Part shown: piece by piece, positions 25,042-35,178 of the stretch
Position numbering within the stretch: the stretch's first letter is position 1
Layout: the number at the start of each line of letters is the position of its first letter
Sequence record: OR427838.1
DNA length: 64,000 nt
Reading direction: 5' to 3' (one strand)
From: Escherichia phage fDHCT2
The notes under the pieces: generated by a model
Database searches by the model: none
What the model was told of the DNA's origin: nothing
What the model saw: the letters and a program-made list of their open reading frames with translations, nothing else
Position numbers and translations under genes: made by a program

Positions 25042-27753
25042 TTAAAAGTCGAACATATCAAATAATGTTGCTTTTTTCTCGTAGTCGATTTTAGCAGACT
25101 CAGTAAAACCAGTCAGAGGCTTGATAAAGGTCTTTTGGAACAGTACGTTGTAGTCCATCCAACGGAGGACTTGGTCACGAATCTGAATCGGAAGTTCAAT
25201 ACCTGACGGCCACGCCATACAAGCTTCACCAAAAGGGTTGCCTTCTTTAAGCGGCAGCACATATACCTTTTCACCATCAACGATACGAGGCATGGTCAAA
25301 TCACCTGCAGAAGCACGCATGTAAGCTAAGCAACCTTTGATGTGATACGGACATTTAGAACCAGGGAAACCGCCTTCATTATATTTCTCGATGTTGTTAG
25401 CACTGGATACTGCAGCAATGCTTACATAGTTTAGTTCGTTAAATTCCTTATTAAACTGTTTGAAATACTCTTGCAAAGAGGCCTCGCCTTCTTGAAGCAT
25501 ACGACGGATACATTCTTTCAGTGCTTTCTGAACTGCTTTAGGTGTACTTGATTTCTGGGTTTCGAGGCCCATGATTTTCAAGTGTGGTTCGGCATAACGA
25601 GTACCTTCCATGTCCCAAACGTTCAGTGCATAACGTTTCTTGCCTGTCCAGAATCCACCAAGACCTTTAGAACCAAGTGGAGGACCAGCGATAGCTTCTC
25701 GGTCCATGAACATCAAGTGCTGTTTATTGTTCATGTATTCGCACATCTCACGGAAGCCTGCATCAATAGCCGGTTCCATACGTTCACGTGCAAATTTATC
25801 TAAGAAATCAACCCAGTGGTTAGTATCACGGAATTTATCTTCGCCTACTTTATTGATGATTGCGTCAGCCTTAACATAAATGGAGTCAGTATCACCATAG
25901 AGCACGAACTTCTGGTTTTCAGTCTTGCACACACCATTCAGATATTCGTTAACCTTACGTTCAATCCATTGGAGGGCCATTTGACCAAACAATGTGATTG
26001 CAGTCGCGTTCCTGAGGTCATAGTAACGGAACCATACGTTACCAAGTGCACCATAAAGGGAGTTGATAAGCAACTTACGGTTAATCTGAGCAGTCATACC
26101 TGCGACTTCAGTACGTTCGGCTTTGAACAACATTTCTTTTAAAGAAGATGCTGACAATTTTTTAATCTGAGCTTTGATTTCGTCAGAGAAGTCGAAACGA
26201 TAATCGATATCCAGTGGGCTATCAACAGACGGATTAGGATTTTCTAATGCTTCCTTAATTAACTCACCATTACGTTGAGCTGCAAGCATATAACCTTTAT
26301 GTTCTTTACGCTGTAAGAACACCTTCGTGATTTCTGTAGGAATCACGCCATCACGGTCTTTATAGTACATCATGCCGTTAGGAGAGCAACTGTAGGTGTC
26401 GCTAGGACGCGGAGCAGTTCCGGCAATATATTCATGTATCGGTGCGTTAGCGAATGTCCCTGCGATGGTCTCTGGGCTTATATTCACTTGTCGAATGATA
26501 CTCGGGTACAGAGATGTAAGGTCGAAACTCATTACATATTTGTACGCGTTAGGAATAGGTTCCTTAACGAAAGCACCTGGATAAGGTTGAACCGCATGCG
26601 ATTTGGCCTGAGGAATAACTTTACCCTGTTCTTTAAGGCTATTAAAGATAATAGCGTCCCAAGTCTTAATTGGACTGAACACCGACTGAATCTGCATCTT
26701 GGCATAGTAACCCATGTCCAGACTAAGAAGAATGAACTGGCGTTTCATATCAATCTGCACAACACGATATACGTCGATAATGTTATAGGAAATATATCGT
26801 TGGTGGTTCGTCTCACGTAACTTGGAGATAGGACCATCATATTTCAACTTACCTACTTTCAATTCATATTCAGAAACATAATCCAGAGAATAAGAAGGCT
26901 GGTTGGTAAAGCTGAATTTTTTATAAAGGTCGATATAATCCAGAACAGAGATACCGAACAGTGTAATAATTTCACGAACACCGTACATATTCTCGATAAC
27001 TTTAACACGAGTCTTACGATGCGGGCTTAATCGCTTAGCAGTGTTCTCACCAAACAGATTTTTCAGACGGTTATAAACGTATGGCACGTCAAATGATTCA
27101 ACGTTCCATCCAGTCAAAATCACAGGAGTTTTCTGTTGCCAGAAATTCAGATACTCAAGCATCATTTCTTCTTCAGAATTAAACGGAAGATAAACGATTT
27201 TGTCAATGATTTCTTGTGGAACTTCGTCACCACCTTCGTCTTGGAGTTTCTCAGCGATTTTAATCGACCACTCTTCGACCGTACCATAAGGTGAAACTAA
27301 AAGGTCAAATACATAGAATTTATCATCAATCGAGTCGTAGTGAGTAATGGCATCGATAGGATGTTTAGCCTGAGCAGGTTCAGGGAATCCATCAGGGGAT
27401 GTTACCTCGATGTCGAAGTTAGCAATACGAATCTTGGAAGAATCATACTTGATTTCTTTACGATAGGTATCAGACAAATAGGCTAATTTATAGTCGTCCA
27501 TACCAAGGGCTTCGAGACCCATATCGTCCATGCGCTTCATCCACTGAGAAGCATCGCGCATTGAATTGAATTCTTTCTTAACACAGCCCTTACCGTAGAT
27601 GTCAATATATTTTACGGCTTGCTCTGGGTTAGCATGCATAAACATTGTAGGCTTGTATGGAACTTCACGACTACGTTCGTTACCATTTTTATCGATGTAA
27701 CGTTCGAGAATATTATCACCGATTTGTTCGACTGTCAAATAGAATTCTTGCAT
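25042..27753 (-). CDS. 43: DNA polymerase gp43
   Basis: start at MQEFYLTVEQ (27753, RBS AAGGAAA); collinear with remembered T4 gp43 to ...LFDMFDF. Confidence 0.97.
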   Translation of the reverse strand: MQEFYLTVEQIGDNILERYIDKNGNERSREVPYKPTMFMHANPEQAVKYIDIYGKGCVKKEFNSMRDASQWMKRMDDMGLEALGMDDYKLAYLSDTYRKEIKYDSSKIRIANFDIEVTSPDGFPEPAQAKHPIDAITHYDSIDDKFYVFDLLVSPYGTVEEWSIKIAEKLQDEGGDEVPQEIIDKIVYLPFNSEEEMMLEYLNFWQQKTPVILTGWNVESFDVPYVYNRLKNLFGENTAKRLSPHRKTRVKVIENMYGVREIITLFGISVLDYIDLYKKFSFTNQPSYSLDYVSEYELKVGKLKYDGPISKLRETNHQRYISYNIIDVYRVVQIDMKRQFILLSLDMGYYAKMQIQSVFSPIKTWDAIIFNSLKEQGKVIPQAKSHAVQPYPGAFVKEPIPNAYKYVMSFDLTSLYPSIIRQVNISPETIAGTFANAPIHEYIAGTAPRPSDTYSCSPNGMMYYKDRDGVIPTEITKVFLQRKEHKGYMLAAQRNGELIKEALENPNPSVDSPLDIDYRFDFSDEIKAQIKKLSASSLKEMLFKAERTEVAGMTAQINRKLLINSLYGALGNVWFRYYDLRNATAITLFGQMALQWIERKVNEYLNGVCKTENQKFVLYGDTDSIYVKADAIINKVGEDKFRDTNHWVDFLDKFARERMEPAIDAGFREMCEYMNNKQHLMFMDREAIAGPPLGSKGLGGFWTGKKRYALNVWDMEGTRYAEPHLKIMGLETQKSSTPKAVQKALKECIRRMLQEGEASLQEYFKQFNKEFNELNYVSIAAVSSANNIEKYNEGGFPGSKCPYHIKGCLAYMRASAGDLTMPRIVDGEKVYVLPLKEGNPFGEACMAWPSGIELPIQIRDQVLRWMDYNVLFQKTFIKPLTGFTESAKIDYEKKATLFDMFDF

Positions 27754-27811
27754 TTCATTTCCTTTATAGACGAGTGATTGTCTTTTGTTTGTTGATGAAT
27801 CATTATACTCC

Positions 27812-27833
27812 AAAAAGGGACCGAAGTCCCTTT
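27812..27833 (-). terminator. hairpin terminator upstream of gene 43
   Basis: minus AAAGGGAC-TTCG-GTCCCTTTTT, followed by GGAGTATAATG. Confidence 0.6.
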
Positions 27834-34757: not shown

Positions 34758-34977
34758 ACCAATTAATACACCGTACAGAGGTTCGTGATTAGACCTGAAC
34801 TTGATAGGCTTATAGGTAATAGTACCTTCATTTTCCGCTTTAATACGAGCAGCTTCAAATTTAAGTATCATCTCATTTTTGTCAGATTTAATCTTATCAA
34901 AATCCGTCGAATTCGTCATTCATAAAACCTCTTAAACTTTTTCGTATTCGTCATTCATTAGCCTGCAGTCCATGTTA

Positions 34978-35178
34978 TCATCGCTGCCACCATTTCTTAA
35001 GTTGATGAGAATCTACCCAAACCTTGGCTACAGGTTCAATCTGAAAAATTCCATCAGAATACTGACCAACCATTTTGTATTCGGTTTCGGACTGCTTAAT
35101 ACAGATATTACCGTATGAGCGAAGTCTGAAAGCGGCTCCAACAAGAAGCCGTTTAAAGGGTTTATTTACTAAGGCCAT
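34978..35178 (-). CDS. hypothetical small protein
   Basis: 66-aa ORF. Confidence 0.45.
   Translation of the reverse strand: MALVNKPFKRLLVGAAFRLRSYGNICIKQSETEYKMVGQYSDGIFQIEPVAKVWVDSHQLKKWWQR

Follow-up and report, generated by a model that had tools for sequence, protein, structure and literature searches.

A conserved eight-codon reading frame at the a-gt.2 start of Escherichia phage fDHCT2, probably a translated micro-gene beside a duplicated pseudo-start

Very short open reading frames (ORFs) are known from phages, such as the bar minigenes of lambda, and TnaC, ErmCL, and SpeFL are established regulatory leader or arrest peptides. Minigenes of 3-8 codons have been described (PMC2490762), and a minigene in axe-txe modulates the translation of the neighboring gene (PMC8708949). 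Overlapping dual starts of the types AUGUG and GUGUG are known as well (PMC9841429). In T4-type genomes, promoter-terminator cassettes called promoter early stem-loops (PeSLs) mediate modular shuffling (PMC2839356, PMC4122927), and at the protein level the docking tip of SSB-Ct consists of the sequence DDDIPF (PMC5872125, PMC3632105). The locus described here lies in 64,000 nucleotides of Escherichia phage fDHCT2 (OR427838.1; this whole analyzed stretch is termed the window), in the spacer between the genes a-gt.3 and a-gt.2, where both copies of a 13-bp direct repeat open an eight-codon ORF. The proximal ORF, MNDEFDGF-stop, probably represents a real micro-gene that is translated and belongs to a family with members in many phages of Enterobacterales; it shares one Shine-Dalgarno (SD) motif with a-gt.2. 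The distal ORF, MNDEYEKV-stop, is probably a duplicated pseudo-start.

The window contains two exact copies of the 13-mer ATTCGTCATTCAT and no more, one at 34911-34923 and one at 34946-34958 on the plus strand, with the start-to-start distance of 35 bp that the first-pass annotation had reported. No other exact 13-mer in the window is directly repeated within 13-60 nt. In first-order Markov simulations the mean number of such pairs per window was 0.08, and 6 of 100 simulations had at least one pair. A chance origin was rejected, considering the single such pair in the window and its conservation in relatives. Both copies read ATGAATGACGAAT on the minus strand, and each indeed opens an eight-codon ORF there; the shared 5' end is ATG AAT GAC GAA T (Met-Asn-Asp-Glu). 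The distal ORF ("Y-type") extends from 34958 to 34932 and the proximal one ("F-type") from 34923 to 34897, with its TGA stop at 34899-34897. Two start codons lie in the proximal repeat copy, ATG1 of the mini-ORF at 34923 and ATG2 at 34919. ATG2 (34919-34917, part of ATGAATGACG; local sequence TAAGAGGTTTTATGAATGACG) is the start of a-gt.2 (34919-34746, minus strand), which encodes 57 aa in the +1 frame and begins 4 nt past ATG1. The SD motif GAGG (34931-34928) overlaps the TAA of the distal mini-ORF (TAAGAGG) and is separated by 4 nt from ATG1 and by 8 nt from ATG2. TAAG(A/G)GG is retained in all relatives with a Dhakavirus-type a-gt.2. The 57-aa ORF matches Pfam DUF5486 (E = 3e-19), has homologues in 759 phage records, and is annotated as a-gt.2 from ATG2 in the relatives. 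A downstream 41-aa ORF, initially described as lacking a ribosome-binding site, is the part of a-gt.2 beyond an internal Met (MILKFEAAR...), and the full ORF lies behind GAGG.

Evidence for translation of the proximal ORF comes from the codon phase of its variation. Across all 38 loci with a Dhakavirus-type a-gt.2 (24 haplotypes, none excluded), each of the four variable columns in the F-type mini-ORF is one of its own wobble positions. The same columns are second codon positions of a-gt.2, where they cause the residue changes T2M, N3S, S4L, and T5M. Directly past the stop of the mini-ORF, the variation shifts to the phase of a-gt.2, whose wobble positions account for 20 of 35 variable columns (hypergeometric p about 0.009). 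Jiaodavirus JD18 and the Kuraviruses, which were reached by DNA similarity and not by the DEFDGF motif, contribute GGA/GGT/GGG and TTT/TTC variants. With these included, all six wobble positions of DEFDGF are variable and none of the 12 other positions is. Judging from the phase of the substitutions, the frame seen by selection across these 27 nt is that of the mini-ORF. A sister unit, MxDEHPDF-stop ("H-type"), was searched with up to 6 substitutions allowed. All 16 nucleotide haplotypes found, in Tequatro-, Mosig-, Dhaka-, and Gapriverviruses, encode DEHPDF-stop, and they vary at wobble positions only (GAT/GAC, CAT/CAC, all four CCN, GAT/GAC, and TTT/TTC, plus TAA and TGA stops). All five variable columns are among the 6 wobble positions of 18, an outcome that uniformly placed changes would give with a probability of about 7e-4. 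Because the variation is wobble-only while altering residues of a-gt.2, and because the unit recurs in a wide family, the proximal micro-ORF very probably is translated and its peptide sequence under purifying selection.

The family, which is related to phrog_6828, is defined here as ORFs of 8 to about 40 codons that contain the hexapeptide DEFDGF or DEHPDF. The proximal ORF has such a module, a stop directly after it, and substitutions confined to wobble positions. The M-x-DEFDGF pattern ATGNNNGAYGARTTYGAYGGNTTY gave at least 120 matches in at least 119 IMG/VR loci vs. one match for a reversed, composition-matched control. Among the matches listed, a stop follows immediately in 86 of 120 (72%, with 4.7% expected), 24 distinct synonymous codings of M-x-DEFDGF-stop occur, and codon 2 is CAT, TAT, or AAT in 67 of the 86, which creates an ATG2 at +4. 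Sister modules of DEFDGF-stop are DEHPDF-stop, DERPDL-stop, and EENWGF-stop. A degenerate DNA pattern for DEHPDF-stop retrieved 39 IMG/VR stretches, about 10 of which would be chance matches by a rough estimate. Its matches beyond the T-even phages include short ORFs, many with a clear SD motif; examples are MKDEFDGFDEHPDF, MFDEFDGFDEHPDF, MPDEFDGFDEHPDF, and MIRNFRFSDEHPDF, each followed by a stop, and the 30-aa peptide MFDEFDGFVGWGEGIRSAEDVDFFDEHPDF-stop. More generally, the modules are found in peptides of 14-39 aa, among them MKDEFDGFDEHPDF-stop and one that begins with MKDEFDGFIGYGEGIR and ends in DEHPDF-stop. The 39-aa peptides MKDEFDGFIGYGEGIRQxEDVDxFVGFGEGIxSDEHPDF-stop match phrog_6828, and relatives of 39, 30, and 24 aa do so at E = 3e-21, 2e-7, and 2e-6, respectively. 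Their alignment resolves into the modules MxDEFDGF, [IV]G[YW]GEGIR, xxEDVDFF, VGFGEGI, and xxDEHPDF-stop, the first of which alone makes up the octapeptide of the window.

Carriers of family members are T-even myoviruses, podoviruses of the Kuravirus and epsilon15-like types, further large contigs of myovirus size, and prophages of enterobacteria. Bacterial genomes yielded eight matches in 185,579 species representatives, six of them in Enterobacterales. JD18 also carries an M-x-DEFDGF micro-ORF. In Kuravirus NJ01 (locus L112, 450-680), a 30-aa ORF ending in GCFEDEHPDF-stop is followed by MYDEFDGF-stop, which overlaps an a-gt.2 homologue. Phage phiEco32 (locus L110, 550-680) has lost the body of a-gt.2 and retained the micro-ORF and the terminator. 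The Kuravirus podophage cassette is the one seen in T-even phages, and its 41-nt stretch with SD motif and micro-ORF is ~95% identical to Klebsiella T4-like phages, which points to horizontal movement of the cassette. In the epsilon15-like phages (loci L117-L127 and others from IMG/VR; TL-2011b and the O157 typing phages 9 and 10), the palindrome GTGACATGTCAC is separated by a 12-nt spacer of variable sequence from M[HTLR]DEFDGF-stop, and 5 nt further on comes a terminator hairpin, immediately 5' of terS. The 12-nt spacer beside the micro-ORF is highly diverged and the peptide is kept. ATG2 at +4 opens a Tyr-rich 36-aa ORF through the hairpin in these phages, and nine loci fuse both ORFs by a 1-nt deletion. 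A Pfam search with the small peptides gave no match, and PHROGs returned phrog_6828 only, a family of unknown function. A protein search with the extended open frame found only 18 close relatives, and literature searches on a-gt.2 and the motif strings retrieved nothing relevant. A sequence-conserved family of eight-codon ORFs appears to be undescribed.

The distal unit differs in its variation and its distribution. Its pattern was found in only five contigs of the IMG/VR scan, all from Dhakaviruses; among the GenBank relatives, Gaprivervirus genomes and a few from Mosigvirus have it too. The changes in the Y-type unit comprise three synonymous ones as well as D>Y (Mizar), E>K (ESh27), TAC>TAA (TH57), and ATG>TTG (VR7 group). 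With three non-wobble changes and one nonsense change, its variation is not confined to wobble positions, and neither DEFDGF nor DEHPDF is part of it. Following the shared 13 nt, it has a 10-nt block in place of the DEHPDF-type tail of VR20-like phages. The resulting tail, EYEKV-stop, is similar to the sequence with which the DUF5486 core begins in other a-gt.2 alleles (D[YF]xK[IV][KR], for example PDYEKVR in locus L061). Because the unit is restricted to close relatives and has suffered missense, nonsense, and start-codon changes, it is read as a decaying, drifting duplicate pseudo-start, and the earlier suggestion that the arrangement might be a remnant would hold for this copy. It does not hold for the specific idea of an alpha-glucosyltransferase (agt) remnant, which was rejected: phages that have agt carry it on the downstream side of a-gt.2, and the gap contains nothing similar to it. 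The repeat is thus not at the T4 agt position, contrary to what had been supposed. Nor does it lie in a simple gap between gp47 and gp55, as a-gt.5, a-gt.4, a-gt.3, a-gt.2, and 47.1 intervene; its place is the 58-nt spacer between a-gt.3 and a-gt.2.

Around 70 junctions from the a-gt.3 stop to the a-gt.2 start, located by their flanking proteins in GenBank phages, metagenomes, and IMG/VR, reveal a modular spacer; metagenome and IMG/VR scans with the a-gt.2 and a-gt.3 proteins found few further T-even junctions. Spacer length is 58, 81, 88, 93, or ~155 nt in Dhaka-, Gapriver-, and some Mosigviruses. The units share the start ATGAAnGACGAA, a core that recurs two to four times in relatives, and relatives hold one to three units in variable order. 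Tail Y, TACGAAAAAGTTTAA, gives M[NK]DEYEKV-stop and tail H, CAYCCNGATTTTTAA, gives M[KN]DEHPDF-stop, and the F unit is the a-gt.2 start itself, TTCGAYGGATTTTGA, encoding MNDEFDGF-stop. The order is Y-F in the fDHCT2 window and WG01, H-F in VR20 and VR5, and H-Y-F in JS98, VR7, and Mizar. RZ and CJ20 have a 13-aa ORF ending in H and then Y-F; SP18 and Esco_phi_B-01 have Y, a 28-aa ORF ending in H, and then F. In the 58-nt spacers, Y and H occupy the identical position and are distinguished by a 10-nt block. We infer that the repeat originated by recombination between short direct repeats (ATGAAnGAyGAA ... TTTAAGAGG), and such recombination between short repeated modules would account for the one to three units in varying order. 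In Tequatroviruses, ATG AAA GAT GAA CAC CCA GAC TTC TGA (MKDEHPDF-stop) directly follows the a-gt.3 stop and the a-gt.2 ATG lies 7 nt inside, and Mosigviruses have ATG CAT GAC GAA CAT CCC GAC TTC TGA (MHDEHPDF-stop) with ATG2 at +4. In T4 (locus L012, about 871-915) and the metagenome phage L060, independent 1-nt deletions fuse an ancestral MKDEHPDF-stop mini-ORF in-frame to a-gt.2, so that the products begin with VKDEHPTSEIDYNK in T4 and MKDEHQTSEIDYNK in L060. The only possible start of a-gt.2 in T4 is then the GTG overlapping the stop of a-gt.3, since the ATG that serves its relatives is out of frame there.

Two further arrangements were seen at these junctions. The metagenome contig OBCQ01000004.1 (locus L051) combines a Dhakavirus-type a-gt.3 and MNDEHPDF-stop with another a-gt.2 allele (MDIDFNKIR...) that has a single start. 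In more distant T-even-like phages, an acidic ORF of 26-30 aa, such as MVREPDSSEYFIHDVDDLGVVETKVGFGEG-stop or MVNEENWGFIDLDEHPDFITSEENWDV-stop, lies at or near the junction; these are L015, L044, L046, L047, L062 (Marfavirus-like), L061, L111 (JD18), and L075, a 180,500-bp T-even-like contig. These ORFs contain the modules EDVDxF, GFGEG, EENWGF, and DEHPDF.

The window belongs to a Dhakavirus and has 97% identity to PSD2002 and WG01 over the repeat stretch. On the minus strand, the genes are ordered gp55, a-gt.5, a-gt.4, a-gt.3, the 58-nt spacer, a-gt.2, terminator, 47.1, and gp47. Upstream of the spacer, a-gt.3 (35178-34978; 66 aa, annotated as such in WG01, JS98, and SP18) ends with TGA followed by TAA. 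Its stop overlaps the ATG of another small frame (ATGA), mini-ORF 0 (34981-34958, MITWTAG-stop), the TAA of which in turn overlaps the ATG of the distal mini-ORF (TAATG). In relatives, wobble positions make up four of the five variable columns of mini-ORF 0 (ACN, GSN, and GGY). A 1-nt insertion joins it to the next unit in SP18, and in OLB35 it has recombined with its Mosigvirus counterpart to yield MITWTGGFF-stop. Downstream, the terminator noted at first reading is a predicted intrinsic hairpin (34757-34738) that overlaps the a-gt.2 end. Within the spacer at 34920-34977 there is no promoter-like or terminator-like site, and a promoter or PeSL cassette in the gap was rejected. The predicted RNA fold of 34880-34995 (-20 kcal/mol, z = -1.85) was equaled by 9 of 200 shuffles, with no significant alternative structure. 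In some GenBank records, a-gt.2 homologues are labeled, for example, "hemolysin," "head maturation protease," "anti-restriction nuclease," or "prohead core protein protease"; such names do not suit a DUF5486 protein of 57 aa and seem to be misannotations.

A working model can be proposed from this anatomy. The cistrons would be chained by overlapping signals, from ATGA at the end of a-gt.3 via TAATG after MITWTAG and TAAGAGG-N4-ATG after MNDEYEKV to the MNDEFDGF/a-gt.2 overlap. Ribosomes might be handed along the 58-nt spacer to a single ribosome-binding site with two starts. After loading at GAGG, initiation at ATG1 would produce the octapeptide and initiation at ATG2, in the +1 frame, a-gt.2. 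Ribosomes on ATG1 would cover ATG2, which has the better SD distance. For the octapeptide, we favor a role of the peptide itself, as a free acidic chain with a Phe-COOH end that may act in trans as a docking or decoy motif, because its sequence is conserved, the module is N-terminal in longer stand-alone peptides, and it occurs without a following gene.

A more specific version of this role appears doubtful. By analogy, MNDEFDGF, MxDEHPDF, MKDEFDGFDEHPDF, and the 39-aa phrog_6828 peptides could be mimics of docking tips at replication and recombination hubs, the SSB-Ct tip DDDIPF and the polymerase tail ...FDMFDF, with which phages of Enterobacterales would plug or compete for a pocket on a protein of the host or phage. 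D-E-F-D-G-F and the sister D-E-H-P-D-F are indeed acidic stretches that end in Phe-COOH. The penultimate Pro of SSB-Ct and the L-F-D-M-F-D-F pattern of gp43 are absent, however, with Gly at -2 in the window and Pro at -3 in the H-type. The DNA polymerase (gp43) ORF (25042-27813, minus strand) ends in ...KKATLFDMFDF-stop, which we take to be a T4/RB69-type C-terminus binding the clamp gp45, and only FDxF and DF are common to this tail and the micro-ORF peptides. If such mimicry were true, few known gene products of phages would be smaller than the octapeptide and its relatives. A RecT protein (locus L089) that ends in ...RFDEHPDF-stop was considered in support and set aside as weak evidence, because its 120 homologues end in the looser GP[DNT]F and because of the estimated chance matches of DEHPDF mentioned above. 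As a separate observation, nearly all of the 120 Clostridia-associated RecT-family proteins (P0019-P0138) end in ...GP[DNT]F or ...DGMDF after a long low-complexity linker, which suggests that this single-strand annealing protein has a conserved tip at its C-terminus.

Several points weigh against the proximal ORF being a micro-gene with a functional peptide. Its translation is deduced from sequence, and the unbiased phase tests comprise about 40 related T-even loci with few variable columns. The IMG/VR samples alone cannot prove selection because they were retrieved by peptide-defined patterns. Just 15 of the 86 family members among the matches listed have a clear SD 4-mer, and the 4-nt spacing from SD to ATG1 in the window is short. 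The micro-ORF is shortened to MHDE-stop in PhAPEC2, and the whole a-gt.2 is gone in ESCO47 (locus L070), where the terminator directly follows a-gt.3; together with the fusions in T4 and L060, these cases imply that the micro-ORF is dispensable. An octapeptide may also be short-lived and unfit for action in trans. With respect to the distal unit, the nonsense allele of TH57 stems from a record marked "UNVERIFIED."

The main rival explanation is a cis-acting leader, and we regard it as rather unlikely. The nascent ...DEFDGF or a pause at the stop would occlude ATG2 and tune a-gt.2 or, elsewhere, mask a terminator, and the released peptide would be functionless. Such a leader would fit the usual position of the hexapeptide directly before the stop, as in arrest peptides, and the frequent NAT in codon 2 that creates ATG2, both as counted above among the matches listed. 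ATG1 and ATG2 share one SD motif in the window, in Kuravirus, in JD18, and in the epsilon15-like phages, and in the latter the terminator stem begins 5 nt past the stop, just 5' of terS. As in attenuators, a short ORF overlaps the gene, with ATG1 4 nt 5' of the a-gt.2 ATG, and minigenes that modulate the translation of a neighboring gene are known (PMC8708949). However, DEFDGF is also N-terminal or internal in longer peptides, far from the stop (MKDEFDGFIGYGEGIR... and MFDEFDGFDEHPDF-stop), phiEco32 has kept the micro-ORF after the loss of a-gt.2, and a chain of eight residues hardly reaches the exit tunnel. An attenuator, moreover, would have to act without a significant alternative RNA structure (see the fold statistics above) on the only terminator present, about 140 nt downstream and past a-gt.2. 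Of the leader-peptide regulator suggested by the first-pass annotation, the translated short ORF is supported for the proximal copy by its wobble-only changes and wide family. Regulation of the downstream gene is conjectural; the micro-ORF also occurs without a following gene.

It is less probable still that both units are functionless recombination scars, with accidental mini-ORFs and a repeat that persists only for lack of time to diverge. The spacer is a hot spot of length variation, the distal unit drifts, the proximal type has been lost or fused in several lineages, and module shuffling at short conserved motifs is known in T4-type genomes (PMC2839356, PMC4122927). Scars would not be expected, however, to vary at wobble positions only in DEFDGF and DEHPDF while the overlapped a-gt.2 codons change residues, to be enriched >100-fold over the composition-matched control with the high share of immediate stops among the matches listed, or to preserve the peptide next to the highly diverged 12-nt spacer of the epsilon15-like phages.

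A programmed +1 frameshift is very improbable. At the shifty stop U UUU UGA (34902-34897), it would generate MNDEFDGF-DKIKSDK..., an a-gt.2 isoform with a conserved N-terminus. GGA TTT TGA is invariant in 38 of 38 Dhaka/Gapriver-type loci, the +1 frame past the T-run is that of a-gt.2, and the P-site UUU can re-pair in the run of four U with an in-frame stop following. Natural 1-nt deletions in T4, L060, and the nine epsilon15-like loci yield matching in-frame fusions. Yet re-pairing is impossible at the TTC TAA or TTC TGA ends of JD18, Tequatro-, and Mosigviruses, and the unit of L051 lies 10 nt 5' of a-gt.2 in a different frame. A GGAGG-like SD stimulator 3 nt upstream, as in prfB, is lacking, a frameshift is unneeded with a well-spaced SD motif at ATG2, and double coding already explains the invariance of GGA TTT TGA. 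Finally, a pair of protein-binding DNA or RNA sites 35 bp apart (operator-like, iteron-like, or for a translational repressor), as also considered at first reading, has a negligible chance despite the exact 13-bp direct repeat and the recurrence of the core ATGAAnGACGAA in relatives, since substitutions follow a strict three-base phase that preserves the peptide, no promoter-like site exists in the gap, copy number, order, and spacing vary among close relatives, and the same peptide is encoded elsewhere by 24 nucleotide versions among the matches listed.

Gene callers ignore eight-codon ORFs, yet the proximal one evolves like a coding sequence under purifying selection. If translated, it would define ultra-short phage genes as a new class, or else be a cis regulator that depends on a specific peptide, and AUGAAUG would be a simple, testable case of two products from one ribosome-binding site. 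The present analysis revises how the a-gt.3/a-gt.2 junction is annotated, down to the fused a-gt.2 start of T4, and the locus documents the gain, loss, and reordering of mini-cistrons, probably through short coding repeats, at a T4-type gene boundary.

Compared with the systems introduced above, the locus shares with minigenes an ORF of at most eight codons, located in an operon beside or overlapping another initiation region, where it should draw initiating ribosomes to itself. Known minigenes work by peptidyl-tRNA drop-off or by way of ribosome traffic and are not known to have a conserved peptide, whereas DEFDGF and DEHPDF are conserved across phage families with synonymous variation. Leaders of the TnaC, ErmCL, and SpeFL type likewise are short ORFs with conserved residues just before the stop, beside a start site or terminator. 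Here, in contrast, nothing points to an alternative RNA structure or a ligand logic, the chain has only eight residues, and the module is also N-terminal in longer peptides and present at operon ends with nothing following. As in the AUGUG and GUGUG dual starts, two start codons a few nt apart serve two frames behind one SD motif, but here the two are offset by 4 nt (AUGAAUG), and a conserved eight-codon ORF, not an N-terminal isoform, occupies the upstream frame. The peptide recalls the SSB-Ct and gp43 tails in its acidic run that ends in an aromatic residue with a free carboxylate, and FDxF and DF-COOH are as in gp43, but it has no Pro at -2 and the motif is the entire gene product rather than the tail of a folded protein. 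Closest in sequence are the 40-aa phage peptides of phrog_6828, whose members (MKDEFDGF-IGYGEGIR-xxEDVDFF-VGFGEGI-xxDEHPDF-stop) begin with the octapeptide sequence of the window and end with the sister module; the ORF of the window has only the first module and then stops. With PeSLs, the locus has in common a short conserved boundary sequence in a plastic T4-like region and the gain, loss, and reordering of the flanked units. The repeat has neither an early sigma-70 promoter nor a stem-loop, however, and its motif is coding (a start, four codons, and a stop plus SD) and also occurs outside T4-like phages. The locus thus lacks the defining features of PeSLs, attenuators, and operator pairs. 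By analogy, the arrangement may work in the manner of a minigene or of an upstream ORF overlapping a start site (PMC2490762, PMC8708949, PMC9841429), and the locus would evolve like other T4-type regions in which short motifs mediate shuffling (PMC2839356, PMC4122927).

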